This document shows positions 3,654 to 60,888 of a stretch of DNA of 64,000 nt, in pieces (within the stretch, counting starts at the first letter, position 1; each line of letters starts with the position of its first letter). Position numbers and translations under genes: made by a program. Below the pieces are notes generated by a model. The model saw only the letters and a list, made by a program, of their open reading frames with translations, did not search any database and had not been told where the DNA came from. Source of the DNA: Acidobacteriota bacterium (GTDB taxonomy: Bacteria; Acidobacteriota; UBA890; WLXD01); NCBI GenBank assembly GCA_963666055.2, contig CAXWPH010000014.1:520538-584537 (forward strand), in the 5' to 3' direction.

Positions 3654-6600
3654 TTGGAGCAGAACCGCTTTGACGTCATCGTCGTAGGCGGTGGCCCTGC
3701 CGGTATCACCGCTGCAACCGCACTCGGCCGCGCCGGGTTCTCGGTACTCGTTTGCGAGGCGGCGGTGTATCCAGGAGCCGAGAACTGGTCCGGCGCCGTT
3801 TATTTCGCCGAGAACATCGAGGCTCCGGAGGCCTTCGGCCGGGCGGCGATCGAAAGCGGTCCCATTGAGCGCCCGCTCGTCGAGCGTGGCTTCTACTCCT
3901 ACAACGGCCACTCGATGTTGGGCGCGGCACTGCGCGACCCGAAGGTGTTCCGCTCCTGCTACACGGTTCTGCGGCCGGTTTTTGACCGCTACCTCGCTGA
4001 GCTTGCCCGCGAGCACGGCGTCGTGTTGCTGTGCGAGACCACCGTCCAGAGCCTGATCCGCCACCAGGGCCGCATCATCGGCGTGCACACCGAGCGCGGT
4101 CCGGCCTATGCCGATGTCGTGTTCCTGGCCGAGGGCGACGCCTCGCACCTGGTGACGCAGGAGGGCTACGAGCGCGTCGGTCCGGACGCCGGCGAGGGGG
4201 GATCGGAGAGCGGCCCGCACTTCCTGCAGGGCGTGAAGGAAGTCGTTTCGCTGTCGCCCGAGATCATCGAGGAGCGTTTCGGGCTGCCGGCCGGGGGCGG
4301 CGGCGCCTACGAAATACTGCTGCGCAACGGCACACGCCATGGCCGCACCGTGCGCCTCAACATGGGTGGCTTCATCTACACCAATCGCGACAGCTTGTCA
4401 CTGGGATTCGTGCTGCCTGTCGATAACCTGGCGGAGAATTTCGACGGCGACCACAACCTGCTGATGGAGTGGTTCAAGGGGCTGCCGGAGATCGAGCGCT
4501 GGATTGACGGCGGCGAAGTAACTTCCTACGGCGCGAAGATCATCCGCGGCGGCGGCTTGCGTGAGATCCCGCGGCTGATCGACGATGGCCTGGCGATCGG
4601 CGGCGCCGCCAGCGGCATCGGCCTCGACTTTCCGTACCCCAACTTCACCGGCCCGGCGACGGCGATGGGCCTCTTGTTCGCCGCCGCTGTGCAGAAGATC
4701 GCCGCCGACAACGGCGGTCCGGGCGGCGGTTCCGGCGACTGTCCGTTCAGCGCCGCGGCGCTCGAGCAGACCTACGTCAGGCCGCTGCAGCGAACCCACT
4801 ACTACCGCAACGTCGAGCGCCTCGCCGACTGGCCCGGGTACATCGAGCGCACCCGTTTCTTCTTCGATCAGCAGGTCGATCTCGCCAATAGCGTGGCGTT
4901 CATCGTGTCGCGTCCCGACATCTCCGCGCCGCGTCGCTGGTGGGAGGCGCTGCGCCTCGAGCGCCGGCTCATCGTGACCAAGCACTTCAAGAGCGTGCTT
5001 GCTGACTTGCGGGAGAATTCCGGGGCCCTCGGCCTCGGGCGGGCCGCCCGGGAGGGTTTTGGTATCGGCACACCCGTGCGCTGGTTGTTCAACACCGTCT
5101 CAGCCTTGTTGCCGAGCCGCCGCACATCCATTGGCGGCGACAAGTCAACGGGTGTTGCGATCGCCACCACGCCCGGTGGCGGCGAGTTTCGTGTGACGTA
5201 TCGGGTCCTGGCGGGCGCCGAGGTGCCCGGTCGTTTGCCGCTCGTTGCCCGGTGGTACTGGAAACGCTTCGGCCCGGCGATGGGCGATGCCTTCGCCGAC
5301 GTCTACACGAACGACGACGAGCCGCTGGATACCAAGTTGCCGCGTGCCTTGGGTCGTTTGATCGACCAGTTTTCCGCGTGGGATGCGGTGCTGTCCGTCG
5401 TCTCCTTGGTGGCGGGAGCCCTGACCTTGCTGGCCCAGTCTTCGATCGAGTGGTTCCAGTACGCCGTGCTGAAGAAGGATCTGTCGGCGTTTCGCGAGCA
5501 GTTCGTCGCCCGGTTGCTCGATGACAATCGCCGCCGTATCCGCCTCGATGACGACGCCGTGGAGATCAGGACGTCCTACGAGCACAAGCTCGGCACGATT
5601 CGCTATCGCGTGGGGCAGCATTCGCACATCAAAGTGCTGTGGCCCGACGATCTTGCGGCGCGTGGTGAGCTGGTCGACTCGCCGCTGTGGAACGTCTGCC
5701 CCGCCAAGGTCTACGAAGTCGATCGGAATCCGCGCGGCATGCCCGGCGTCGTCGTCAACTTCGACAACTGTGTCAAGTGTGAGACTTGCTGGCGCGCCAC
5801 CCCCGACGTGCACTGGAGTCGGGCAACGCAGCAGCGGCTGATCTACGAGACCTATACGCCGACCCATGCCGAGCTGCGCAACTACTTGCTGACGCGGACC
5901 GAGCCGGTGGCACGTTTGCGACGGCTGCCGAGCTACTGGGAGGCGTACTGGTCGGGATCTTCCGACTTGTCGACGAGCTCCGAACAAGCGGCGCTTCTGA
6001 CGGGTGTCGAGGCCGAGCTGCGTCGCTTTAGCGCGGCGCTGGACGGCTACTCACAGGCGCTCGGCGATTCGCCGCCGGCGCTGGAGCAAGGCGAGCGCTA
6101 CTACCTGGAGGAACTGCTGGCCTCGGCGACGCGGCGCTTCGAAGCCGCGCGGGCGCTGTGGCAGACGGAGGCGCTGGAATCGCTGCGCGCAGCAGCCGAC
6201 GGTGCGGCGGCAGTGTGGGCCGACGCCGCCGAAAGGGTGGAGGAATTGGCGCGGCACGCTGCTGCCAAGCGCTATTTCTGGTCGGACGTGGTGGGCAAGC
6301 AACTTCGCGAGCACCATGTCGAGGGACTTCTCGTTTTACTGCGGCGTGAAGCTGCCGGTGTCGATCAACTCGCTCCGCAGCACGGGTTGCCTTCCGAACC
6401 GTGCGAGGCATGGTCGTGGATCGCCGGTTGGCCGGCCGTCGAATGCCGGCCGCTGGCATTCGAAACGCACCGCAAAACGATTCGTGACTGGTGCGACGCG
6501 CACGTCGACTCCGCCGTTCTCAACCGGCTCGAGGAGGGGCTGCCGATCAGCACGGAACTTCGCGACTGGCTTGCCGCGGAGCTCAGGACGGCGGTTGCGT

Positions 6601-9600
6601 CGGGGCGCGATGGCGAAACCTGGTCGGACCCGGCAAACCGCGCCACGCCGGCGACGCCCCGCTACGGGCAGCGAGACGTATTGCTCGAGGAGCTCTCTGC
6701 GTGTGATCCGTCGTTGGCGGCACTGGCCGCCCAGCATCTGCTCGCCTGTGATCTGCTCGACGGTGTTGCGGCAGCCGATCCGACACTGATTGACAACCTG
6801 CGCGCCGGACGGCAGCTGGCGACTGTCGTATCGCAGGGAGCCATTTGCAACGAGCTGATCGTCTCGGGCAAGGCGGCGGAGGGTGTTGCCGCTGTGGCAG
6901 CCGAAGCGGGTGTCGAGCTTCACGGCGTAGCACCGTTGGTTGCTACGGCGTTGGCCGATTGGTTGCTCGTGGTGCGTGACAATCGCGGCTACCTAGTGCC
7001 GATCGATGACCCGGGAGTGAAGCTCGAGGACGTGGGTTGCATCGGGCTGGTCGGCGCCGCCGTGCGGCGGGTGATCTTCGACGGTTGCGTTGTACCGCCG
7101 GAACACCTCTTCGATGTTCCTTCGATCGACGAAAGGTCTGCCTTTACGGCGCCGGCCGTCGGCGAGCCGTTTGCTGATCTTCTGCGAATCGGCGTGCTCG
7201 ATCACCTGGCAATCGTGCGGGGCGCGGGCACCTACTTGACGCAGCGTGCGCGTGAGCATGCCGCCACTCGGGTTCAGTTCCCCGATTCTTTCCAGGACGA
7301 GGCCGGCCGGGACACGATCGCCAAGTTCGGCGCCGTGAAGCGACTCATGGCCGAGATGGAAGCGCAGCGCATCCTGGTGGAGTCGCTCAGTATCATCGAT
7401 CCGGGACCGACCGACGACCCGTGGATTGGTGCCGCGGTGCGCAAGGTCCTCGCCGCCGACGCCTTCGGGCCGAATCGAGGCTCGTTGGGCTACAACTGCG
7501 GCCAGGTGTTCGCTGGCACGGCATTTTCCGAAGACGACTGCATCGCCAAGTACTACCGCGACAGCAGTCCGTTCCGCTTCTTGCTCGCCCACGACGACGC
7601 GCTGCGTGTCGAGATCGGCCGCCGCCGACTTGCAGCAGTACGGCAGGGCAACTCTTTGGTCCCGCTGTCGCCGGGCGAGGCGGCGTGGCTCGGTGCCCTG
7701 GGTGACGAAGCTCCTTTGGCCGCCGCGGTGCCGCGCTGGGAGGCAGCCTGCGCCAAGATCGACGGGTGGGCCGATAGCGTCGCGGCGGCCGACGAACCAA
7801 TGGCCGAGCTCCTGTGCTTTCAAGCCGGCGGCGTGGTTGCGTCGGCGTTGGCTGTCAAGGTCTGTCTGTTGCGCACCGGTTGGCGTCTCGAGTCCGGTTT
7901 GCCTGCCCAGGCGACGCGCGCAGCGACCAACCTTCTCAACGACGAGTTCTGTGCCGCCGTTCCGGGGGTCATCGACGATGCTCAACTTCTTGCTGAAACT
8001 CTCGAAGTCGGTGACGAGACGATCATCCACGGCGATTTCGAGCCCGCCGCCGACATCGCCGACGCGGAGCCCTATCGCGCCGTGCTCGAGACCGATCACG
8101 GTGCCGATTCCGGAGAATGGCTGGTCGGAGGTTTCGACGGCGAGCGACTCCGCTACGTGCCCGAGATCCTGTGGAACGACCCGGAGCTAGGCGCGTTTCG
8201 CGACAGGGTGGAGGCGGAGCAGCGACGGCGCTACGTCGAGCCACGCTTCGACGGGCTGACGTACAACCGGTATCTCGAGAAGCTGCACATCGTGCCGCGC
8301 GATGATCTCGACTACCTGGTTGACGAAGGCTTCCTGCGCATGCCGATCCCGACGTCGCTCGGCGGTGAAGGGGTACTGAAGGCGCTCTACTACATCGTCT
8401 GCGAGATGACGGGTCGCTACGGCGACGCGGCGCTGTCGCTGGCCATAATGGCCAACACGAGTATCGGCACGACGCCCATGCTCCTCGGTCTCAAACAGGA
8501 CCTGCCGCGCGCCCGCGCCGAGCTCGAGAGGGTCAAGGGCGACCCGACGCTGCTCGGCGAGATACACGACGGCCTCGACAAGCTGATCGCCGGCATGGCG
8601 CGTCCCGATCTCGAGGCGCTGCAGCGTGACTACCTGGCGCTGATGGAGCTGGTCAAGGCGCGCATCGTCAAGTCGAGCGTGCTCAAGTACATCGGCGGCG
8701 GCTTCCTGCGCGCTTTCTTCGCCGCCGGACAGGCCGGCGAGCAGCGTGACCTCGACAGCTTTGCCGACAACCTGCGGCAAGCCCGCGAGCGTCTCGACGA
8801 GATCCTCGAAGGTGTCGAGGACCGGCTCATCGAGTACCCGCGCCGCGAGCGGGCGCACGAGCTGTTCTTGAAGATGATCTCGGCCGGCTACATCTCGGCC
8901 TTCGCGCTCACCGAGCCGACTGCAGGATCCGACTCGGGCGGCGTGAAGACATCGGCGCGCCTTGATCGGCGGCGCGTCTATTGCGACGACGACGGCGTCC
9001 TGTACTTCTGGCTCGACGATAAGGCCGAAAGCGAACGGCGCAACCTCCTCGACGCCGACCGGGTTGGGTTCGACTTCGATCGCCACAAGATGCTCTATCG
9101 CTTCTCAGAAGACGCCGAAGCTGCGGAGATCAACCACGACGCCTTCGACTACGACAGCCGGGAGCTGCCGAGCAAGTGGCGCACCTATCGTCACGGTGAT
9201 CGCGACGTTGCGTTCACCGACATCGCGCAGATTCGTGAGGATGAGGCCGGTGACCTCTGGTACGAGTACTGGGAGCTCAACGGCGTCAAGATGTGGATCA
9301 CCAACGGGCGCTTCGCCCATTGCTTCGCGCTGTACGCCACGACCGAGCCGGAGGGCGTTACCGGTTTCATGGTCGACCGCCACGCCGAGGGCATGGTGGT
9401 CGGCGCCGACGAAGAGAAGCTCGGCCAGCGTGCCTCGCCCACCAACGAGTTGTCGCTCACCGGAGTGCGCGTGCCGCGCGAGTGCATCATCGGTTTCCGC
9501 GGCCGCGGCCAGGTCAACGCCCTCGAAACGCTGAATACCGGGCGTACCGGCTTGGCGGTGACGGCGCGCTCCGGTATCCAGGAAATACTCGAGGACGCAG

Positions 9601-12404
9601 TGGCGTTCTTCAGCGAGACGCGACCCAGCGCGTACCCGAAGCAGGGAGCGCCGGCGACCGCGCTGCAGACCTACTGGATGGGACGCCTTACCGAGGAGCT
9701 CATCGGCACCGCCGCCGTTGCCAACGAGCTGATCGGCCTGTTCGACCATCCACTAACCAAGAACGTGCGCATGGAGTCAGCGATCGGCAAGTACTACGGC
9801 AGCGAGGCGCTGCACGACGGCATCGAGTGGATGGAGCGATTGCGTGGGCTCGATGGCTTGACCCACCGCCATCGCATCGAGAAGACGCGCCGTGACGCGC
9901 GGGTGCTCAACATCTACGAAGGCACCAACGAAGTTCAGCGCTACCTGTTGTTGCGCGACCTGGCGCAGCGCGTGCTGCCGGCGTGGAAGGCGGCTCAGAA
10001 AGATAGCGACGGCGCGGAAGTAGACACGGCCGGCGCGCATCCCGATCTGCGCCGGCAGCTAGAGGACGTCAAGCAGCGCCTGATGTCACGGCTGCAGGAC
10101 GCCGACGCGGCGTTCGGCCAACTCATCTGGTCGAACGTCAATCTACAGCCGTGCTTCTTTTGGCTGGCCGAGATTTCCGGCCTCATCAAGGTGATGGACG
10201 CGGTGCTGTATCGCCTCGAATGGCTGGCCGCCCACGACGTGGCCGCCGTGTACCGCGAGCGCCTCGAGCGCGCTTCGCGCCTGGCATTTCGCCGTTGCGG
10301 GGTGCGCATCGACACGCTCGAGCGTTTGTTCACTGCTGCCCACGCCTATCTGCAGGACGGGCGCTACCCGCCGGATGTGCAGCTCGGGTTCCTGGCTCTC
10401 GACGAGGCCGGCGTCATCGCCGAGGCGTGGGGGGTCATGCCCGCGTCGCGTCGCCCGCAGCCGGAACTACCGCCGCTGGCCGACGATGTGCGCATCGTCG
10501 TACTCATCAAGTCGGTGCCCTCGGTTGCCCCGCGGCCGCGGGTCGGCCATGAGTCGTTCGAGGAATCGCTGCACTCAATCGACCAGGTCGACGTCCGATC
10601 GCTGCAGATGGCGCTCGATCTCAAGCGCCGAGATCCGGCGCGGGTAACCGTGGCCGCTTATACGCTGGCTGGGGCCACCGGCAACGAGGCACTCCGCCAG
10701 GCATTGGCGATGGGAGCCGACGAAGCGCAGATTCTGGTGGGTGGCGAGACGGTACCGGTTCAAGACCCCGCCCGGGTGGCGCGCATTGTCGGAGGTTGGC
10801 TGCAGGACAAGCCGGCCGACATCGTGTTCTGCGGCGCCGCCGCTTCGGACACCTCGCAAGGTATCGTCGGCCCCGCACTCGCCGGTGCTCTGGGCCGTGA
10901 GTTTCTCGCCGGCGTTACGGAAGTGCGCTGGAGTCCGGCGCCGGAGCCGCTGTTGCACGTCGGCGCAAGCGGTTGGCAAGGTCACCACATCGATGTGCCG
11001 GTGCCCTGCGTCATCGCGACGGCGGCGCACGCCGAGCACGCCGAGGCCGAATACCGGGTCGGTGGTTTCGTGGCCGCGTTAGCGGCAGCAATCGGCAGGC
11101 TCGAGGCCCGCGATTCGGAAGTCGGTGCTTTGCGTGTTGCCCACGTGCCTCGTGCCATTGCCGGCGGCGGCACTACGGTTCAGATCGCCCGCACGCCGGA
11201 GGATGCCGCCGATGTGTTGTTGCGCACGTCCGGGCTGACCGATGCGGTGTCGAGTTCCGAGGCCGATTCCTACGCCGGCGATCCGGCCGGCTTCGGCCAG
11301 CAGCCGGAAGACCCGTCTCCTGTCTGCCTGTTCGTTTGCGCGCCTGTGGCCGCCACCGACATGGAATCGTCCACGCAGGCGTCCCTGGAATCGGCTGCTC
11401 GTCTGGCGGCCGGCGTCGACTTGCCGCTGGACGTGGTGTTGCCGGTGACGGGTCCCGAGGCTCTCGCTGCGGGAGTGGGGCAGGTGATTGCCGATGTCGG
11501 GCCACGGCGCATCTATGTGCTGGAGCAGGCCGACATCGATCGGCTCGGCTACCGAGGTCACATCGAGTGGCTCGAGGAGTTCTGGGGCATGTACCGTGGC
11601 CAGCCCGAATGGCTGCTCGGGCCGGAATGGGCACGCACGCTGTTCGCCTACTTCGGCGGCCAGGGACCGCCCGCCGTAGAAAGGAGCTGGTCCTGGTTCG
11701 GTGTCGAGCGGGTGAGCAATGGTGGACCGGAGATCCGACTCGGCACATCCATTCTCGACGGTGCGGCTCGCGCCGTCGCGACGGTGCCGAAAACAGGCGG
11801 CTTGCGCATCGTCACGTTTGCCGGCGCCGCCGCAATCGATCTGCCGGACATCGCGAGCTCCGCTGATGCGACGCAAGTGTTTGCCTACCAACCGCGGCTC
11901 GACTACGACCTCGCGTCCGATCCGGCGGCGGCTCTGATGAGTCGCCTGGGCGGCGGAGAGCTGACGCTGCAGGCGGCCGAATACATCGTCGATTTCGGCT
12001 ATGGCGCCGGGGGTCGGGAGGGCCTCGCGGAACTCGCCGAGCCGCTCTTGAGCATCCTGGCAGACGAGCTCGGGCTGCCCAACGCGATGATCGGCGCGAC
12101 GCGCAAGGTCACGCAAGATCTCGAAGTGCTGCCCATGGATCGCCAGATCGGACAGACCGGTGTGCGTGTACACCCCAAGGTGCTGGTAGCGCTGGCAGTT
12201 TCAGGCGCCCCGCAACACGTCGACTGGATCGACGACGAGACTGTCATCCTCGCCTTCAACGTCGACCCCGACGCGCCCCTGATGAGGCTCAACGAGCAGC
12301 GCCCGAATCCGGTGGTTCATCCGATCGTGGGTGACGTTTGGGAAACCATCCCGCGGTTTATGGCCGCCCTGCGCGCGGGCGAGCGGGCGCAAGGATCGCG
12401 ATGA
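3654..12404 (+). CDS. Giant fusion: FixC/ETF-QO FAD domain + 4Fe-4S + two acyl-CoA dehydrogenase domains + ETF-beta + ETF-alpha
   Basis: GGAG RBS before TTG; DVIVVGGGPAG; GGFIYTNRDSLSLG; CPAKVYE...NCVKCETC; RVQF; FALTEPTAGSD; LNGVKMWITNG; RDARVLNIYEGTNEVQR; ALAMGADEA; QIGQTG...SGAPQH. Confidence 0.9.
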   Translation: MEQNRFDVIVVGGGPAGITAATALGRAGFSVLVCEAAVYPGAENWSGAVYFAENIEAPEAFGRAAIESGPIERPLVERGFYSYNGHSMLGAALRDPKVFRSCYTVLRPVFDRYLAELAREHGVVLLCETTVQSLIRHQGRIIGVHTERGPAYADVVFLAEGDASHLVTQEGYERVGPDAGEGGSESGPHFLQGVKEVVSLSPEIIEERFGLPAGGGGAYEILLRNGTRHGRTVRLNMGGFIYTNRDSLSLGFVLPVDNLAENFDGDHNLLMEWFKGLPEIERWIDGGEVTSYGAKIIRGGGLREIPRLIDDGLAIGGAASGIGLDFPYPNFTGPATAMGLLFAAAVQKIAADNGGPGGGSGDCPFSAAALEQTYVRPLQRTHYYRNVERLADWPGYIERTRFFFDQQVDLANSVAFIVSRPDISAPRRWWEALRLERRLIVTKHFKSVLADLRENSGALGLGRAAREGFGIGTPVRWLFNTVSALLPSRRTSIGGDKSTGVAIATTPGGGEFRVTYRVLAGAEVPGRLPLVARWYWKRFGPAMGDAFADVYTNDDEPLDTKLPRALGRLIDQFSAWDAVLSVVSLVAGALTLLAQSSIEWFQYAVLKKDLSAFREQFVARLLDDNRRRIRLDDDAVEIRTSYEHKLGTIRYRVGQHSHIKVLWPDDLAARGELVDSPLWNVCPAKVYEVDRNPRGMPGVVVNFDNCVKCETCWRATPDVHWSRATQQRLIYETYTPTHAELRNYLLTRTEPVARLRRLPSYWEAYWSGSSDLSTSSEQAALLTGVEAELRRFSAALDGYSQALGDSPPALEQGERYYLEELLASATRRFEAARALWQTEALESLRAAADGAAAVWADAAERVEELARHAAAKRYFWSDVVGKQLREHHVEGLLVLLRREAAGVDQLAPQHGLPSEPCEAWSWIAGWPAVECRPLAFETHRKTIRDWCDAHVDSAVLNRLEEGLPISTELRDWLAAELRTAVASGRDGETWSDPANRATPATPRYGQRDVLLEELSACDPSLAALAAQHLLACDLLDGVAAADPTLIDNLRAGRQLATVVSQGAICNELIVSGKAAEGVAAVAAEAGVELHGVAPLVATALADWLLVVRDNRGYLVPIDDPGVKLEDVGCIGLVGAAVRRVIFDGCVVPPEHLFDVPSIDERSAFTAPAVGEPFADLLRIGVLDHLAIVRGAGTYLTQRAREHAATRVQFPDSFQDEAGRDTIAKFGAVKRLMAEMEAQRILVESLSIIDPGPTDDPWIGAAVRKVLAADAFGPNRGSLGYNCGQVFAGTAFSEDDCIAKYYRDSSPFRFLLAHDDALRVEIGRRRLAAVRQGNSLVPLSPGEAAWLGALGDEAPLAAAVPRWEAACAKIDGWADSVAAADEPMAELLCFQAGGVVASALAVKVCLLRTGWRLESGLPAQATRAATNLLNDEFCAAVPGVIDDAQLLAETLEVGDETIIHGDFEPAADIADAEPYRAVLETDHGADSGEWLVGGFDGERLRYVPEILWNDPELGAFRDRVEAEQRRRYVEPRFDGLTYNRYLEKLHIVPRDDLDYLVDEGFLRMPIPTSLGGEGVLKALYYIVCEMTGRYGDAALSLAIMANTSIGTTPMLLGLKQDLPRARAELERVKGDPTLLGEIHDGLDKLIAGMARPDLEALQRDYLALMELVKARIVKSSVLKYIGGGFLRAFFAAGQAGEQRDLDSFADNLRQARERLDEILEGVEDRLIEYPRRERAHELFLKMISAGYISAFALTEPTAGSDSGGVKTSARLDRRRVYCDDDGVLYFWLDDKAESERRNLLDADRVGFDFDRHKMLYRFSEDAEAAEINHDAFDYDSRELPSKWRTYRHGDRDVAFTDIAQIREDEAGDLWYEYWELNGVKMWITNGRFAHCFALYATTEPEGVTGFMVDRHAEGMVVGADEEKLGQRASPTNELSLTGVRVPRECIIGFRGRGQVNALETLNTGRTGLAVTARSGIQEILEDAVAFFSETRPSAYPKQGAPATALQTYWMGRLTEELIGTAAVANELIGLFDHPLTKNVRMESAIGKYYGSEALHDGIEWMERLRGLDGLTHRHRIEKTRRDARVLNIYEGTNEVQRYLLLRDLAQRVLPAWKAAQKDSDGAEVDTAGAHPDLRRQLEDVKQRLMSRLQDADAAFGQLIWSNVNLQPCFFWLAEISGLIKVMDAVLYRLEWLAAHDVAAVYRERLERASRLAFRRCGVRIDTLERLFTAAHAYLQDGRYPPDVQLGFLALDEAGVIAEAWGVMPASRRPQPELPPLADDVRIVVLIKSVPSVAPRPRVGHESFEESLHSIDQVDVRSLQMALDLKRRDPARVTVAAYTLAGATGNEALRQALAMGADEAQILVGGETVPVQDPARVARIVGGWLQDKPADIVFCGAAASDTSQGIVGPALAGALGREFLAGVTEVRWSPAPEPLLHVGASGWQGHHIDVPVPCVIATAAHAEHAEAEYRVGGFVAALAAAIGRLEARDSEVGALRVAHVPRAIAGGGTTVQIARTPEDAADVLLRTSGLTDAVSSSEADSYAGDPAGFGQQPEDPSPVCLFVCAPVAATDMESSTQASLESAARLAAGVDLPLDVVLPVTGPEALAAGVGQVIADVGPRRIYVLEQADIDRLGYRGHIEWLEEFWGMYRGQPEWLLGPEWARTLFAYFGGQGPPAVERSWSWFGVERVSNGGPEIRLGTSILDGAARAVATVPKTGGLRIVTFAGAAAIDLPDIASSADATQVFAYQPRLDYDLASDPAAALMSRLGGGELTLQAAEYIVDFGYGAGGREGLAELAEPLLSILADELGLPNAMIGATRKVTQDLEVLPMDRQIGQTGVRVHPKVLVALAVSGAPQHVDWIDDETVILAFNVDPDAPLMRLNEQRPNPVVHPIVGDVWETIPRFMAALRAGERAQGSR

Positions 12405-49697: not shown

Positions 49698-49767
49698 AAT
49701 CCGTATTCGCGCGAACGCACCCCTTTTCACTTCGGGGTGCGTTCGTGCGTTCGGCGTCTGCGGCGGG

Positions 49768-51185
49768 CTAACGTTTGACGTCGAGCGTCAACGTGACGTC
49801 TTGGCGGCGATACAGGCACACGCCGTTGACGTCTTCGCAGACGTAATAGAGCGCGTGTGCGGAGAAAACGATGCCGGCCGCGCGCGTCGTCCGGCGCCTT
49901 GATCTCCAGCTCCACCTTGCGCGTCTCTGTACTCACCACCTCGGGCGGGTTGGGCACCCGCACGGCGCGCCGGTCGACCTGCCACCCTGCGGGCACATCG
50001 ATCCAGAACACCAGGCCGTCGACCTCGTTGTTCCAGTGCGCCTTGATGGCTTCGTTGGGGACGAAGCTGACGTGCGCCCGGCTGCTGCCGCCGGCTGAGA
50101 TCACGCTCGGGACCATCGTCGCGGTGGCCGAGACGAACTCTCCGTTGTCGCGGTAGATACGCTCGTCGACGGTGGGGGGATTGATTTCTTCGGTATCAGC
50201 GGTGAAAGAGCGTTGCGGGCTCGCGAACTCGGCGCCGCCGGGTTCCACAACCAGCGCTGCCGGCGTCTCGCCGCGTGCCGCGATCTCCTGGCGCGCCGTC
50301 GACACCCAGTCGTAGAACGGGTAAGGCTTCTCCAGCCGCGGGCCGTACTGTTGGATGCGCCGGCGCCAGATGTAGTTGTTGGGATCGACATCGAGAGCCC
50401 GTTCCCAGTAGCGCACGGCCTCTTGGAAGTCCTCCGGCTTCGAGCTCGGCGAGTCGTACCGCCAGCGGTAGGCAACGCCGGTGCGAAAGAGTGTGTAGCC
50501 GTGGCCTGAATCGGCGGTGACGGCACGCTCGAACGCCGCGATCAGCGCGTCGGGATCGGCAGTGCGTTCCCACAGATACATCGACACGGCGTCGGTCGCC
50601 GGTCGGCTCATCTGAGGAAGCGAGGTCGTCATGTCTCCGGGCGGCTCGAACTCGGCGTCGACGAACTCGGCACGGAACGTCTCGAGATCGTCACGCGGTG
50701 GTTGAATCTCGCGGATCACACCGTGCTCGTCGATGGCCAACGTCAGCGGCACGACCGTTGTTTCAAGCAGATTCAGGGAGTCGACGAGGATCGGCCAGTC
50801 CATTTGTTTCCACTGCATGAAGAGACGGGCGCGGTCGGGATGCTGCTCCTGGATGATGCCGACCATCGTCAGGTCACCGGCGTCCTGCCACTCCTTTGTC
50901 GCTTCGTGCCACCCGGGCACGTGCACGCGGCAGCCCGCTCACCAGGAGGCGAACACATGTAGCATCACCTTGCGGCCGCGAAAGTCCGACAGCCGCGTCA
51001 GCGTGCCGTCCTCGAGCGATGGTAGCGCCAGGTCGGGGAACACGTCGCCGACGCCGAAGCGCGGGTCGAGGTGCTGAGCGGGAGTTGCCGGGGCGTTTGT
51101 CACGACGAGCGTTACGGCCGTGAACACCGATCACCGTTGCTAACAGGCCATCGCGGCCTGCTAGGGACAGGCGTCGATTGTGCAT
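49768..51185 (-). CDS. Exported TlpA/AhpC-TSA-like thioredoxin selenoprotein (UxxC) fused to TPR and DsbD-N-like domains (frameshifts near 51128 and 49875)
   Basis: GAGGAGG RBS; VGDVFPDLALPSL...LSDFRGRKVMLHVFASW-TGA-AGCR read in frame; TPR WERALDVDPNNY; third-frame C-terminus HALYYVCEDVNGVCLYRRQDVTL...KR*. Confidence 0.75.
50905..50921 (-). promoter_or_regulatory. Putative bacterial SECIS element
   Basis: CGTGCC-CGGGT-GGCACG hairpin starting 17 nt after the TGA at 50939-50941, G at loop position 2. Confidence 0.55.
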
Positions 51186-51318
51186 GTGATTCCTCCTCGA
51201 TTCGGCAGCGTGACCGAAACGCGGCGAGAAATCCAGCGCTCCGGGCGCATCGCGTTGCCGCGCCTACAGGATCGCTGTCGGCGCCCCCCGGCGGGCCGAC
51301 TTTGCCCGCGTGAGCGCC

Positions 51319-52608
51319 TCAGTCGCCCGGTCGCTCCAGCCGCTCGATGCGCTCGGCGCCCATGTAGGGGCGCAGCACGTCGGGGATCGTGACGCTGCCG
51401 TCGGCCTCTTGGTAGTTCTCCAGCAGGGCGACGATGGTGCGGCCGATGGCGACGCCGGAACCGTTGAGCGTGTGCACGAGGCGTGGTTTCTTGCTTTCCT
51501 CGGGTCGGTAGCGGATCTCGGCGCGACGTGCCTGGAAGTCCTCGCAGTTGCTGCACGATGAAATCTCGCGGTAACGGTTTTGCGACGGCAGCCACACCTC
51601 GATGTCGTAGGTCTTGGCGGCGGCGAATCCGAGGTCTCCGGTCGCCAGGCTGACAACTTGGTACGGCAGCTCGAGACGCTGCAGGACGCGCTCGGCGTCA
51701 CCGGTGAGCGTCTCGAGCATCTCGTATGACTGCTCGGGGGTCGTGTAGGCGACCAACTCGACCTTGGTGAACTGGTGTACGCGGATCATGCCGCGCGTGT
51801 CCTTGCCGTACGATCCGGCCTCGCGGCGGAAGCACGGCGTGTAGGCGCAGTAGCGGATCGGCAGCTCGCTTTCCGCCAATATCTCGCCGCGGTGCAGGTT
51901 CACCAGCGGCACCTCGGACGTCGGAATCAAGTAGAAGTCGTCGCGCTCCAGATAGAAAGCTTCATCAGCGAACTTGGGTAGTTGCCCAGAGGCCTCCATC
52001 GACTCCGGCGACACCAAAAACGGCGTCAGCACTTCCAGGTAGCCACCCTCGTCGCGTGCCAGATCGAGCATGAACGCCGCCAGCGCCCATTCAAGCCGGG
52101 CGCCGGCACCGAACTGCGTCGGAAAGCGTGCGCCGGCAACCTTGGCGGCGCGCCCCAGATCGATGATCCTGAGGTTCTCGCCGACGTCCACATGATCGAG
52201 AACCTTGAAGTCGAACTCACGCGGCTCACCCCAGGTACGCTCGACCAGGTTGGCGCTTTCGTCGACGCCCACCGGGACGCTGTCGTGCGGCAGGTTGGGC
52301 AGCCCCAGAAGATCGGTGCGGATTCCGCGCTCGAGCCCGCCGAGCTCGTCATCGAGCACTTCGACTTGCTCGCTTACCGCCGCCATCTCGGCAATGATCT
52401 CGTCGGCGTTCTCACCGCGTTTCTTGAGCTCGCCGATTTTCTTGCCCGCCTCATTACGCTCCGACTTGAGCCCGTCGACGTGCCGGATCAGCTCGCGGCG
52501 CCGTTCGTCACGGCGCAACAGGTCGGAAAGATCGAAGTCGACGTTGCGATGCGCCAGGCCCGCGGCCGCCGTCTCGGGATCTTTGCGCAGTTTGGCGAGG
52601 TCATGCAT
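51319..52608 (-). CDS. serS: Serine--tRNA ligase
   Basis: [56 protein letters not shown]; ATG at 52608. Confidence 0.97.
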
Positions 52609-52625: not shown

Positions 52626-52901
52626 CTACGAGGCCTTCTTTTCTTTTTTGGTTTCGGTCTTCTTGTCGGTTTTCTTGGACTCCCCCTCGGAGCTCTCGGA
52701 TTCGGCGCGCTTGCCCTTGTTCTTGTCGGCGTAGTCGGTGACGTACCAACCGGTGCCCTTGAAGCGGATGGCCGGCGGGCTGATCAGGCGGTCGACCCTG
52801 CCGGAACACTCCGGGCAACGCTGCCGCGGCTTGTCGGAGAATTTCTGGATGAGCTCGAAGCGGTGACCACAACGACGACACTCATACTCATAGATGGGCA
52901 T
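52626..52901 (-). CDS. FmdB family zinc-ribbon protein
   Basis: [16 protein letters not shown]...CPECSG...[11 protein letters not shown]. Confidence 0.92.
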
Positions 52902-55772: not shown

Positions 55773-55954
55773 GTCGGCAGAATGCCTGTTGACCGTGAGT
55801 AGGGCAAGCTAGTGTCCCATCAGGCTCTTGCCACGGACTACTGGGGGCGTTTCACGAAATCAGCGTTAGGTGCCTGGCACCGCGGCGAGCTTGTATCTGT
55901 TGATCCTGTTTTGCGGCGAATGGTAGAGTGGCAGCAAAGGGGCAACCTCTGCAC

Positions 55955-57695
55955 ATGATCACCTTCCCGAATTCGGATCGCACACAGAACCGCTATCTCC
56001 GCCTGATTCTCTTGGTGCTGGTGTCGGTATTGGCTGCACAGCCGGCGATGGCGACCCCGGCGGGACAGAGCTCGCAACAGAGCGAGCTCACCGGCGCGGT
56101 GTATGACGGAGCCGGGCTGCCTCTTTTCGGCGCCCTGATTGCCGTGGCGGCTCCCGGCAGCGAGTCGCCGATGGCGATGACGATTTCGGATACCCGCGGG
56201 CGTTTTTCTTTCAGCGGGCTGGCGCCGGGTGTCTACACACTCATGGGCGCGGAGCTTCGGCTTCGTGAGCGCGGTCGTTCCCGAGGTCGCGATCCCGCGC
56301 TTCACGCCGGTGCAGCTGCAGTTGCGCTCCGAGCGCCAGGTAGTTTCGCTGCTGTCCGACGGCGCTGCTCTCGATCTTGGCTGGGCCTTCCGGCCGCGCG
56401 TGCGCGACATCCTGCGCCGGTACCGAGCCCACGGGCCTGGCGCCGCCGACCGGCGCCCCGACCTGGCTCGGTAGTCTCGACGACAGCACGTCGATTTGGG
56501 ATCGAGTCGGCGGTGAGCTCAACCTCTGGGCCGTAGCTCCGGGCAGTGGTCGTGGCGCCGAAGACAGCCGCGCCGCCACCGAGGTCTCCCTCGGTTCGCG
56601 CAGCGGCGAGCAAAACTGGATTCTTCGCGGCCAAGTGGCCGACGGTGGTGTCGTCAGGGCGCACAGCGAGATCTCGCGCGTCATGAGTGATTCCCACACG
56701 CTGCGCCTCGGGCTCGGCTTCGCCGGCAAGGATCTGACGATCCCGGGAATCAACGACGACCGACGCCGCATGTGGGTCGGCAGCTTCGCTGCGGAAGACT
56801 ATTGGCGCCTTAACGACGCCGTGCAGGTCGGTTTGGGGCCTGCGCTTCGAGCACTACAACTATCTCGCAAAAGCCGCCGTCATATCGCCGTGTCGCCGCG
56901 TTCAGGTCGCCTTCGTGCCGATCGAATCGGTCACTCTGACCACGGGCGTGTCGTACGACGCCCAGGCACCGGGGCTCGCCGAGCTCCGCTTCCAGGTCGA
57001 CCCGCTGGCCGTCCGCTACATGGACGTTCTGACGCTTGATGGAATCGATCCCGAGCGCACCGATGCGGTCTCGATGTCGGCGTCCAACGCTCCACGCGAA
57101 CCACGGCTGTGCGGGCTCGTGGCCTATCACGACCAGGTTCAGGACGAGCTGATCAGCATCTACCTCGCCAATCCGTCCGGATCCACCGACTATGTGGTCA
57201 CCAACATCGGCGAGGCCGTTACGCAGGGCTTCGAGTTCGACGTGCGCCAGACGCTGGCGAACAGCATCTCAGGCTTGTTCAGCTACGCGTACGGGCGGCG
57301 CGACGGGGCCAACTTGCCGGCAAACATCGTGGCCGAGCGCGGGCTCGTGAGTGGCGACGTCGGTCCCAACGTGGCGGCCGTTGATATCGTCCACGAGCTT
57401 GCTGCGAGCATCGAGACCGTCGTCGGCTACGACACGCGCTTGCAGGCCACCTAATCGCTGGAAGCGCGGCGTTCCCGTGGTCCGCGACGGCAATATGCAC
57501 AACGTGTACGAGCGCCTCGATCTTCGTGTGCGGCAGCCGCTGCCGTTCCGCGCCCTGGCCAGCGGAGTGGTCGGCGTTGATCCAGGTGCAGAACGTTCTC
57601 GGCTACAGCTACGACGGCGTTTTTCAGATTTCGGCGTCGGCGATGCCCCGGTGTTGTCGCGGCTGCTTACCGGCGGACTGGCCGTTCGTTTCTAG
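55955..57695 (+). CDS. Carboxypeptidase-regulatory-domain outer-membrane beta-barrel protein (multiple frameshifts)
   Basis: Signal peptide; GAVYDGAGLPL...TISDTRGRFSFSGLAPGVYTL; beta-strand fragments; ends GGLAVRF*. Confidence 0.65.
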
Positions 57696-57984: not shown

Positions 57985-60888
57985 ATGACGGCAAGAGAAC
58001 AACGAATCGACACGCTGAGGTTGGTCGCCCTGGTGGCGCTCACCGGCGCTCTGGTGTTTCTGGGCGTCGTCAGCTTCGTCAACCGCTTGATCTTCGAGGA
58101 GTCGACCGACGGGGTGGTGTGGCTGCAGAGCGAGCAACGGCTCATCGCCGAGTCGTTGGCGCCGGGCGGCCCGGGTGAGCGCGCCGGCCTCGTGGTTGGT
58201 GACGAGCTGTTGCAGATCGGCAACCTGCCGGTCCGGGTAGAGATTCGCGAGTGGGTCGAGAGTGTCGTGTTTTACCGAATCCCCGGCGACAGGCTCACCT
58301 ACCTGATCGACCGCGGCGGCCAGCGGTTCGAGATCCCCATCGAGATCGGCGGCCTGCCGGTCGACAACTACGCCTACTTCTATCTGTGCCTTGTCGGCGC
58401 CGCGACGCTGATTACAGGTGTGTTCGTGCTGATGCGTCGTCGGGAAGTCGAGGCCGGTTCCGGCGGCCAGCTTACCGGCGTAGCGGCACGCTTCTTCTGG
58501 CTCGCGGCGGCCTTCTACGCCGTGCTGGTGCTTTCGGTAACCCGCGATGGAGATCCCTTCTACAACACCATCTATTGGGTTGACCAGTTGGCGCGCAACG
58601 CACTGCCGGGGCTCTTCCTGTACTTCGCGTTGACGTTTCCGCGGCCCAAGACGCACTTCGTCGAGCATCGCGTCGCCTGGTTGACCGGCATCTTCGGGCC
58701 GGGAGTGCTGCTGTTTCTGTCGCACGGCACGTTGAACTTCGGTCGGGAGGCCATGCGGCTTTCCCCGCTTACTTTCTACCCCGCCGTGAATCTCCTCAGC
58801 AGCATCGGTCTTCTGTACATCGCCGTCTCGCTGGGGCTCGGCACCCTGCTCATCGCCCACAGCTACAAGATCACCGTCGCCCCGATCGAGCGCCGGCGTC
58901 TGACCTGGCTGGTCGGCGGCATGGCGGTCGGCCTGTTCCCGTTCGTTGCCGTGTACGTGCCGCTCTACGTGTTCGGCGTCAGACACCCATATCTCGACCT
59001 TACGGTGCTGCCGTTCGCCTTGATTCCCGTTTGTTTCGGCTACGCGGCCGTCGGCTTCCGACTGTGGGACGTCGAGGTGATTCTCAAGCGCGCTCTTGCC
59101 TACTCGATGGCGGCGCTTGCCGTGCTCGGCGTATACGTCGGTGCGGAATGGGCCATCCGCAACTTGCTGGAGGGCATCGATCTGCAGCTCGCACGGGCCG
59201 GGGCCTTCATTGCCACCTTGATCGTGGCGACCGCATTCGCGCCGTTGCGTGACTTGATCCAGGACGGTCTCGACAAGATCTACTACCGCGAGCGCTACCG
59301 TTCTCGCCGCGGCATCCTCGACTTCGCCCGCGACCTCAACACCGAGCTCGATCTCGGACAGGTCGTTGAATTACTCGTCCAGCGAGTGCGTCGGATGGTA
59401 GTCGTGGGGCGCATCGGTGTCTTGTTGCGCGAGGAAGACGGGCCGCGTCTGCGGCTGGTGATGGCGGACAGCACGTTCGGCGATGGGCCGCGCCTCTCAT
59501 CTGCGTTTTCCGAGTTTCTGTCGGCCGCGCTCACCAACCGCGATTTCATTTACGTCGAGGACATGTCGAGCCTCCTCGAGGAGTTTTCCCAGGACCGTGA
59601 GCTCCTGGCTGAAGAGGATCTGGCGTATTTTCTGCCGTTGATCGTCAAGGGAGAGGTGCTGGGGCTGTTGGCACTGGGTCGCACGCTCTCGGGAGACTAT
59701 CTGTCGTCGGAAGACCTGAAGGTCCTGCAGATGCTGACGTCGCACGCCGCGCTGGCTCTGGACAACGCTCTGCTGTACCAGCAGGCGCACGCCCGAGCCG
59801 AGGAACTCGAGCGTCTCAAGACCTTCAACGAGAACATCGTGCAGAGCATCAAGGTGGGGGTGATGGTGCTCGATACCAATGGCCGGGTGCGCTCCTGGAA
59901 CCATTCGCTCGAGGACATTAACGGTATCAAGGCGAACGAGGCGATACGCCGTCAGGTCGATGAACTGTTTCCTTCTAGCTTCATGTCGGCGCTTGACCAG
60001 GCACGTGAGCGGGTTGAGGGCGCCGGCGAGCCGATTGCATCGGCGTATCGTGTGGGGTTGCGCAGCCGCGACGGCGTCGACCGCGTCGTCAACATCACAG
60101 CCACGCCGTTGCGAGGTGATACCGGGCAGTTCGCCACCGTCGTCATCGTCGACGACGCTACCGACGCCACGGAACTGGAGTCGCAGCTTCGCCAGTCAGA
60201 CCGCCTGGCGTCGGTTGGTTTGCTGGCCGCGGGTGTGGCGCACGAGGTCAACACGCCGCTGGCCGGTATTTCGAGCTATGTGCAGATGTTGCAGCGGAAG
60301 TTGCCGGAGAATGATCCGCGGCGGCCGATCCTCGAGAAGATCGAGAAACAAACGTTCCGCGCCTCGAGCATCGTCAACAATTTGCTGAACTTCTCGCGTC
60401 AACAGGCGTCGGAGATGCAGCCTGTCGACATCAACGTGGTGGTCAACGAGACGCTGACACTCGCCGAGCTGCCGCTTTCGAAACGCAAGGTTCAGGTCGA
60501 GACGGTTCTCGACGAGACCCTGCCGCAGGTGTGGGGAGATCCAGGCAAGTTGCAGCAGGTTCTGATGAACCTGGTGCTGAACGCCCGCGATTCCATGCCG
60601 AGCGGCGGAAACTTGAATATCCGTACGGCAAGACAAAACGGCGAGATCGTTTTAGAGGTTGCGGACACGGGCGCCGGGATTCCGAAGGACCAGATCCACA
60701 AGATCTACGACCCGTTCTTCACCACCAAGGGAACCGGCAGGGGAACCGGGCTCGGCTTGTCGGTTACCTACGGCATCATCCAGGAGCACCGCGGCACGAT
60801 CACGGTTCGAAGCGAGTCGGGCAGCGGCACTTGCTTCCGAGTAGCCCTTCCTGTTGCTGCCGCAGCGCAGGCGCCGCGCGCCAGTTGA
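57985..60888 (+). CDS. Membrane sensor histidine kinase (PDZ, multi-TM, GAF, PAS, HisKA, HATPase)
   Basis: PGERAGLVVGDELLQIG, GVAHEVNTPL, QVLMNLVLNARD, DTGAGIP, PFFTTKGTGRGTGLGL. Confidence 0.93.
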   Translation: MTAREQRIDTLRLVALVALTGALVFLGVVSFVNRLIFEESTDGVVWLQSEQRLIAESLAPGGPGERAGLVVGDELLQIGNLPVRVEIREWVESVVFYRIPGDRLTYLIDRGGQRFEIPIEIGGLPVDNYAYFYLCLVGAATLITGVFVLMRRREVEAGSGGQLTGVAARFFWLAAAFYAVLVLSVTRDGDPFYNTIYWVDQLARNALPGLFLYFALTFPRPKTHFVEHRVAWLTGIFGPGVLLFLSHGTLNFGREAMRLSPLTFYPAVNLLSSIGLLYIAVSLGLGTLLIAHSYKITVAPIERRRLTWLVGGMAVGLFPFVAVYVPLYVFGVRHPYLDLTVLPFALIPVCFGYAAVGFRLWDVEVILKRALAYSMAALAVLGVYVGAEWAIRNLLEGIDLQLARAGAFIATLIVATAFAPLRDLIQDGLDKIYYRERYRSRRGILDFARDLNTELDLGQVVELLVQRVRRMVVVGRIGVLLREEDGPRLRLVMADSTFGDGPRLSSAFSEFLSAALTNRDFIYVEDMSSLLEEFSQDRELLAEEDLAYFLPLIVKGEVLGLLALGRTLSGDYLSSEDLKVLQMLTSHAALALDNALLYQQAHARAEELERLKTFNENIVQSIKVGVMVLDTNGRVRSWNHSLEDINGIKANEAIRRQVDELFPSSFMSALDQARERVEGAGEPIASAYRVGLRSRDGVDRVVNITATPLRGDTGQFATVVIVDDATDATELESQLRQSDRLASVGLLAAGVAHEVNTPLAGISSYVQMLQRKLPENDPRRPILEKIEKQTFRASSIVNNLLNFSRQQASEMQPVDINVVVNETLTLAELPLSKRKVQVETVLDETLPQVWGDPGKLQQVLMNLVLNARDSMPSGGNLNIRTARQNGEIVLEVADTGAGIPKDQIHKIYDPFFTTKGTGRGTGLGLSVTYGIIQEHRGTITVRSESGSGTCFRVALPVAAAAQAPRAS

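Follow-up and report, generated by a model that had tools for sequence, protein, structure and literature searches.

A family of putative exported selenoproteins of about 460 residues, which occurs mostly in Acidobacteriota, was found to join a TlpA/ResA-type thioredoxin-fold domain with a predicted selenocysteine, TPR helices, and a C-terminal Ig-like domain with a C-x6-C cysteine pair. We propose, with a probability of roughly 45% for the reading as a whole (export and selenocysteine included), that the protein is a self-contained relay that would pass electrons from the selenocysteine domain via the tail to envelope proteins. A membrane donor would reduce the Sec-Cys (U-x-x-C) centre (a DsbD_TM/CcdA-type protein is encoded in the genome), this centre would then reduce the cysteine pair of the tail, and the tail pair would repair oxidised envelope proteins, with the TPR helices as a scaffold or docking site.

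Domain architecture

One member of the family lies in the stretch of 64,000 nucleotides analysed here (the window), which belongs to contig C14 of assembly G000. A GTDB scan with query-derived patterns gave 398 stretches, 356 of which were confirmed as relatives, and the best 80 loci were kept; 79 of these span the Sec codon and the remaining one begins downstream of it. By record titles, the relatives belong mostly to Acidobacteriota, followed by Gemmatimonadota, Planctomycetota, and Verrucomicrobiota, with one member each from Anaerolineae and Methylomirabilota. The nearest relatives of the window protein are L001 (= G024; 91% amino-acid identity) and G012 (94%). An intact paralogue of 458 residues is located in the same assembly (G000:C12:215.9-217.2 kb; L112), with leader, TGA, an identical hairpin, and C-x6-C.

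On the minus strand of the window, a single frame runs from 51127 through a TGA (50941-50939) to approximately 49868 and joins the ORFs 50939-51127 and 49727-50926, as had been proposed in a preliminary description of this DNA. The local reading across the TGA is ...KVMLHVFASW-U-AGCRVHVPGW.... In the window copy, the ATG at 51185 and its GAGGAGG are out of frame with the gene body, and the C-terminus, YYVCEDVNGVCLYRRQDVTLTLDVKR followed by a stop, lies in another frame than the gene body; a frame change near 49868 yields YYVCEDVNGVCLY with C-x6-C. The features of the gene are as follows.

51192-51198, minus strand: Shine-Dalgarno sequence GAGGAGG, read from the sequence and in the same position in G012 and L001
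51074-51185, minus strand: start ATG and predicted signal peptide, from alignments to L001 and G012 and leader statistics in relatives
~51144-51164, minus strand: 21-nt in-frame insertion in the leader, from alignments to L001 and G012
51127-51128, minus strand: frameshift 1, a +1 insertion absent in G012 and G024 and present in contigs of the runs X1-X4
50657-51055, minus strand: TlpA/ResA-type thioredoxin-fold domain (PF00578, PF08534), boundaries transferred from the L001 model
50939-50941, minus strand: in-frame TGA for the predicted selenocysteine that opens the U-A-G-C motif (TGA in 79/79 loci)
50930-50932, minus strand: resolving Cys of UxxC (Cys in 79/79 loci; TGC 66, TGT 13)
50905-50921, minus strand: SECIS-like hairpin with 6-bp stem and loop CGGGU, from folding and conservation
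50276-50605, minus strand: TPR helices and the motif PNxYIWRRRIQQYGPRLxKPYPFYDW, from the TPR_2 profile, the L001 model, and conservation
49771-50164, minus strand: C-terminal Ig-like beta-sandwich domain, its last two strands in the shifted frame here, from structure models and fold search
49868, minus strand: frameshift 2, one extra base (+1) within a T run, present in contigs of X1-X3 but not in G012 or G024; read as is, the Cys pair is lost
49816-49839, minus strand: C-x6-C pair (YYVCEDVNGVCLY), present in 77/79 loci and 251/256 database proteins
49768-49770, minus strand: stop codon TAG of the ancestral frame, from translation and alignment to relatives
51319-52608, minus strand: serS (TIGR00414, 524.6 bits), a neighbour only, outside the system

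The intact relatives have a signal peptide followed by the TlpA/ResA-type domain, the TPR helices, and the Ig-like domain with C-x6-C. According to a simple hydropathy rule, which is not a dedicated predictor, 71 of 79 relatives have a hydrophobic leader, compared to 60 of 535 control segments, and some leaders contain a lipobox-like Cys. Export, which had already been claimed for the window protein, is thus very probable for the family; the leader of the window copy itself is out of frame.

The N-terminal domain matched PF00578 (45.3 bits) and PF08534 (39.4 bits), both above the cut-off. An AlphaFold2 model of L001, based on a 30-sequence alignment, reached a pLDDT of 90.9 and a pTM of 0.89, so that three parts are confidently placed: a thioredoxin domain that matches DsbE/ResA/TlpA structures, helices at residues 158-267, and an all-beta tail at residues 305-434. 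These results agree with the TlpA-type UxxC domain and the TPR module of the preliminary description. At E<=0.05, TPR_2 was detected for 28 of the 30 members searched; TPR profiles match most members, with scores under the cut-off. The most conserved stretch is the motif PNxYIWRRRIQQYGPRLxKPYPFYDW after the TPR helices, with a mean conservation of 0.80 vs 0.60 for the tail. The C-terminal cysteine pair is likewise conserved; it had been described as CxxxxxC, whereas the actual spacing is C-x6-C. Among the 79 loci there are two exceptions, a contig that ends early and L038, which lacks the first tail Cys.

The tail and the proposed relay

The tail of the C12 paralogue, folded alone, adopts an Ig-like sandwich (pLDDT 94.0) whose best fold matches are generic Ig domains (9FYO lacto-N-biosidase, Z 11.3). 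SOQ1 (7DJL) is found at rank 23, level with numerous Ig folds to which it is unrelated (Z 8.7; rmsd 3.1 over 103 aligned residues), and at rank 50 by Foldseek; solved nDsbD is outside the top 50 fold matches. Of 65 members searched at a threshold of E<=0.5, Pfam DsbD_N (PF11412) matched 4 (best E 0.028), with all 65 under the cut-off, and NEW3 matched 25. A search of the tail sequence against the PDB gave nothing meaningful, SOQ1 being unmatched at E<=10. In the ESM Atlas, the tail matched unnamed clusters at 0.92-0.94 and, at 0.87, a cluster in which 11% of the members are DsbD_N; recognition is sub-threshold and no more than a lead.

By hhalign, the tail could be aligned over 115 columns to 18 PF11412 matches from relatives (E 0.007-0.016, probability 3-5%), and none of 40 column shuffles scored as high. 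In this register AHWNN falls on GxHVN, PxGW on PxG, and YYVCE..C on YQACD..C, the cysteines being separated by x6 in the tail vs x4 in the 18 matches. The label "DsbD-N-like" of the preliminary description holds in so far as the profile alignment is full-length with the cysteines in register, but not as a classification, the scores being below the Pfam cut-off and nDsbD not among the top 50 folds. The sequences weakly support it as a fair name for a distant link, not for membership.

The tail profile also matched a second family in the genome (G000:C6:363944-365404, minus strand; L140:445-1905), which consists of a leader, a deiodinase-like GCLT-TGA-PPF domain, a YYACDNDNTWC tail, and EF hands, and has no TPR. 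By hhalign (95.6%, E 1e-8), the tails of the two families are homologous, and their cysteine pairs line up. The second family was also found in G014, G039, G147, and G175. In an evenly drawn phylum sample, four of five weak tail matches from other genomes were fetched (two matches in G175 had equal score and range), and all four belong to the second family, with TGA and Y[YF]AC-x6-C. A third candidate (G000:C15:816382, minus strand; L124:1456-2718) is a predicted lipoprotein with SAVW-U-PYC and a DsbD_N domain (PF11412) above the cut-off. The tail module is clearly shared and, judging from these genes, travels with Sec-thioredoxin folds. Since the Cys-pair Ig tail recurs behind such folds both with and without TPR, a functional coupling is favoured.

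It is probable that the tail pair is redox-active, and we lean towards a relay within one chain. The direction from Sec to tail was chosen because of the precedent of SOQ1. In the accessible part of 10.1101/2021.03.16.435614, the CTD of SOQ1 is described as nDsbD-like with C1006/C1012 and the flow is proposed to run from Trx via CTD to the substrate; the accessible part of 10.1101/2024.11.01.621559 reports electron transfer from Trx to CTD (Em -274 and -252 mV) as well as methionine sulfoxide reductase activity. By analogy to DsbD and SOQ1, this direction is likely, with oxidised envelope proteins as the likely substrate. If the relay is true, the family would be a bacterial selenium counterpart of SOQ1/NHLRC2, in which the Trx to nDsbD-like direction and the substrate could be tested in one small soluble protein. 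Against the relay stands that no conserved neighbour in the 80 loci points to a donor or a substrate.

Other observations that weigh against the relay would suit a Sec-dependent reductase of peroxide or small molecules, with the tail as a binding or structural Ig module in which C-x6-C only stabilises a beta-hairpin. The top fold matches of the tail are non-redox Ig domains with SOQ1 only at rank 23, DsbD_N matches are confined to the 4 of 65 members, L038 has lost one tail Cys, and a beta-hairpin disulfide in an exported protein can be structural. The NEW3 matches point the same way, as does the related family NF041054, which has the Trx-TPR core and whose member in this genome is unmatched by the tail profile. 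However, the same Cys spacing is found in the tail fused to a different Sec-thioredoxin family, and the tail motifs align with PF11412 members over the 115 columns; we regard this explanation as rather unlikely.

The reverse flow suggested in the preliminary description, in which electrons would enter at the nDsbD-like tail, reduce the selenenylsulfide, and reach the substrate from the Sec centre next to the TPR motif, is in our view unlikely. Selenocysteine is usually the catalytic nucleophile, which counts for this direction, and the high conservation of the post-TPR motif relative to the tail would suit a substrate site near the thioredoxin domain. nDsbD is also known to reduce CcmG-type thioredoxins (10.1101/2024.11.01.621559, accessible part). 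On the other hand, the flow measured in single-chain proteins with Trx and nDsbD-like domains (DsbD, SOQ1) runs, according to the accessible parts of the sources, from Trx to the Ig domain, and for the tail to serve as the input, a separate external donor of Trx type would be required; no such donor is conserved nearby in the 80 loci.

The relay from Sec to tail may be extended to a bolder and decidedly speculative idea. The Ig-like C-x6-C module, as a distant nDsbD offshoot, might be a dedicated Sec redox partner behind at least two Sec-thioredoxin folds (W-U-AGC-TPR and deiodinase-like CLT-U-PPF), the Cys version of which was not seen. In Acidobacteriota, Gemmatimonadota, Planctomycetota, and Verrucomicrobiota, it would then form a soluble, selenium-based relay for envelope repair, akin to DsbD/SOQ1. 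Such a relay might act as a reductase of methionine sulfoxide or sulfenic acid that is not related to MsrA, MsrB, or MsrP.

The in-frame TGA and its hairpin

The TGA is almost certainly read as selenocysteine, as predicted from codon conservation, synonymous variation, a frozen hairpin, and the Sec machinery, and in agreement with the preliminary description. In the 79 loci (best 80 of 356 GTDB relatives), the codon that interrupts FASW-TGA-AGCR in the window is always TGA and never TAA, TAG, or TGY. Up to the next possible start, the codons after the TGA show synonymous variation with A-G-C-R kept, and the motif is U-A-G-C in 77 loci and U-R-G-C in the other two. In TlpA/ResA profiles, the position aligned with the TGA is occupied by the leading Cys of CxxC. 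In the evenly drawn phylum sample, where the tail profile matched 11 of 121 genomes, the TGA was present in all five full-length members fetched, one of which, G158, is the genome of L010.

The hairpin CGUGCC-CGGGU-GGCACG (50921-50905) begins 17 nt after the UGA, as had been noted before. Its 5-nt loop, 6 bp, loop G, distance of 23 nt from UGA to loop, and energy of -8.5 kcal/mol lie within the bSECIS ranges given in the accessible text of PMC13188914 (loop 3-9 nt, stem 4-16 bp, G in the first two loop positions, 16-37 nt from UGA, MFE <= -7.5); the usual N1-N2 loop pair is replaced by C-U in the window hairpin. Compared to shuffled sequences the hairpin showed no excess stability (z -0.84, -0.15), and a search of Rfam gave no SECIS family match and one weak riboswitch match under the cut-off. 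As stability alone is unremarkable, the support for the hairpin comes from its conservation. The codons +7 to +9 within it are frozen (GTG 78/79, CCC 73/78, GGG 68/70, corresponding to 0.99, 0.94, and 0.97), compared to 0.39-0.81 for 15 other conserved degenerate codons. Stem pairing was observed in 98.3% of 480 cells, vs a maximum of 63.8% in slid controls, and two pairs were altered on both sides, a covariation equally high in 5 of 500 shuffles.

The Sec machinery is present, with selA, selB, and selD above the cut-off and two tRNA-Sec in the assembly, and selA was also found in G012 and, partially, in G024, the closest relatives of the window DNA. Of 50 carrier genomes tested (L001-L050 of the 80 loci), 47 contain selA. 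Co-occurrence of selA nevertheless discriminates little, because 36 of 40 relatives taken irrespective of the gene have it as well, and it was dropped as a discriminating test.

Domain order and tail cysteines are kept in the alignment of homologues together with the TGA, but the pairing of Cys and TGA that such an alignment might have revealed was not found in the 79 loci. Full-length Cys versions were absent from these loci, from 256 database proteins, and from the best 120 database matches listed; distant TlpA/ResA proteins do carry Cys. This is in contrast to the rule, stated in the accessible text of PMC13188914, that for nearly all selenoenzymes the Cys homologues outnumber the Sec forms. 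It is scarcely credible that the TGA is a true stop between two separate genes, as in the database annotation: the motif is not found across the codon in any of the 256 retrieved database proteins, a GTG start lies 4-7 codons past the TGA, and no Cys version was found for Sec/Cys pairing, but a stop would cut the thioredoxin fold at its active site, TAA and TAG never occur in the 79 loci at a codon that matches the first Cys of CxxC, the "intergenic" codons vary synonymously, and the SECIS-like hairpin is frozen.

Origin and state of the window copy

G012:C5 matches the window colinearly at ~90% nucleotide identity, compared to mostly ~66-78% for three genomes of the genus of G000. Within contig C14, the segment at 460-480 kb is native, with up to 93% identity to G002, and the sequence is G012-like from ~516.5 kb; the window DNA duplicates housekeeping genes on C15 at ~70%. 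Second, intact copies of polA, serS, two tRNA-Ser genes, and the selenoprotein gene are located elsewhere in the assembly. These copies and the switch in identity near 516.5 kb indicate that the last 68 kb of C14 are DNA of another family of the same order, joined, to judge by the sequence, by misassembly or transfer. The window is therefore not native DNA of the genome under which it is filed.

On the same strand, serS (TIGR00414) lies upstream and ends 133 nt before the gene, and this adjacency had been taken as a hint at a functional link. The position was correct; the link was not borne out, since serS was nearby in only 1 of 80 loci (L001), 61 of which had at least 2 kb of upstream sequence, and serS was rejected as a partner. 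The C12 paralogue is flanked by other neighbours, and G012, of the same genus as L001, is colinear with the window, so that by gene order the serS adjacency is local synteny. No gene neighbour was conserved in more than 7 of the 80 loci.

Some neighbouring genes are worth recording in their own right. Genes named from their sequences as selD or selB-like adjoin the gene upstream in four loci (L008, L018, L022, L046), and an AhpD-like gene split after "GCHY", a possible further selenoprotein, lies upstream in L030, L032, and L057. Upstream of serS, an FmdB family zinc-ribbon gene (window 52626-52901, minus strand) has a plain CxxC and no Sec; the accessible text of PMC13188914 includes a selenocysteine-containing form of the family.

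Regarding the reading frame, a frameshift near 49875 had been presumed to be a sequencing error. A frame change near 49868 does yield the expected C-terminus, but its status as an error is unproven, as contigs from public runs match the window without gaps. The alignments to L001 and G012 place single-base insertions at 49868 and, as a further frameshift, at 51127. We slightly favour the view that both are real, recent mutations and that the window copy is a pseudogene. Contigs of X1, X2, and X3 (depth 2.5, 4.6, 12.4; two studies) span 49868 with 0 gaps, and contigs of X1-X4 (depth 2.9-16.2; three studies) span 51127 with 0 gaps; for both sites, the assembly may itself derive from one of these runs. 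The assembly also contains an intact paralogue.

A shared systematic error of uncorrected long reads has a little less than an even chance of explaining the two frameshifts. There are ~15 single-base insertions relative to G012 in 49.2-64 kb, mostly extensions of runs, a pattern that resembles such error. Three of them are in the 5' region of polA (55380, 55449, 55576) and a further cluster is found at 55928-57695 (TonB-dependent receptor-like gene); relative to both G012 and G024, these clusters consist of single-base insertions and almost never of deletions. An 8.7-kb gene (3654-12374) and a kinase (57985-60888) are insertion-free. A Pol I that has lost its 5' nuclease through the polA insertions, should these be genuine, could in turn promote insertions. 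Also against a pseudogene, the window copy has no nonsense change and its lineage has an N/S of 9/27, similar to serS (10/31), and G012 and G002 bear indels of their own in the gene. The window allele may thus be broken; the claims about the family are independent of it.

Two long-contig assemblies have their own frame breaks in the gene, L088 (G012) and L097 (G002), and the +2 of G012 lies ~10 nt from a +1 of the window. The summed depth of contigs from X1-X3 at 50881-50941 was 215-430 vs 3-16 on the flanks; this peak over the Sec codon and hairpin indicates that many other organisms there carry the stretch.

Known systems and further candidates

The best NCBIfam match is NF041054 (WAxxUGC_long), with 61.4-68.4 bits against a cut-off of 300. 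As in the present family, Sec is located in a ResA-type domain followed by TPR-like helices, the profile covering query residues 30-259; unlike it, the family adds a 130-residue Cys-pair tail and has U-A-G-C (77/79) or U-R-G-C (2/79) in place of the U-G-C motif. A near-member of NF041054 in the genome (G000:C6:386052, minus strand; L113) reads TWASW-U-GC and scores 278.6 bits (cut-off 300).

SOQ1 (Arabidopsis, lumenal Trx-like - NHL - CTD; PDB 7DJL) and human NHLRC2 share with the family a Trx fold, a scaffold, and an Ig-like, nDsbD-like domain whose last hairpin carries a Cys pair, as well as an extracytoplasmic location. They differ in that the scaffold of the family is formed by TPR helices, without the NHL beta-propeller, and in that the family has Sec for Cys, C-x6-C vs C-x5-C, and no sequence match at E<=10. 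The N-terminal domain of DsbD (PF11412) has in common the Ig fold, the H-x-N motif, the PxG loop, and the terminal Cys pair over 115 columns, but the 65 members of the family are under the Pfam cut-off, have no transmembrane domain, and place Trx first. By analogy, the family would work like SOQ1 or the soluble parts of DsbD and is a member of neither. TlpA/ResA/CcmG (DsbE) proteins have the same fold (TM ~0.75 of target), the W before the motif, and the invariant V-P at the cis-Pro loop; the family has Sec and two further domains, and its scores are far below their cut-offs.

UxxC redoxin selenoproteins are already known. In the accessible text of the 2026 inventory PMC13188914, Table 1 has UxxC entries in PF00578/PF08534 domains, namely Prx-like thiol:disulfide oxidoreductase (PF00578), Redoxin family protein (PF08534), and thiol-disulfide isomerase-like (cd02966). 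None of its entries names TPR plus a DsbD-N-like domain, a comparison by labels, one of which could cover this family, and "TPR" and "tetratricopeptide" have 0 occurrences in its main text. A literature search that left most subscription papers and supplements outside its scope gave no description of the family. The preliminary description had called the architecture unrecognised; this holds for a TPR plus DsbD-N-like selenoprotein, none of which was found in the published work searched, but SOQ1 is a functional analogue and the Trx-TPR core is related to NF041054. What this analysis adds is that the deiodinase-like family has the same tail, that the tail cysteines are spaced by x6, that serS is not linked to the gene, and that the window copy is foreign and frameshifted.

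The family is large and routinely mis-split. In addition to the 356 GTDB stretches, 2208 database matches were obtained among 7998 candidates scored; there is no NCBIfam model for it, and in every record examined the protein is cut at the UGA and filed as "TPR" or "hypothetical".

The gene had been called the second selenoprotein of the window, but scans of the window gave no other convincing UGA-recoded gene. The genome as a whole is, as predicted from its TGA-containing frames, rich in hidden selenoproteins. Additional redoxin-like W-TGA-x-x-C candidates, all on the minus strand, were found at G000:C5:40106, C15:548327, and C15:748006. ARAGORN detected a CUA-anticodon tRNA ("Pyl") at G000:C5:65608-65685 and two tRNA-Sec genes on C6/C13.
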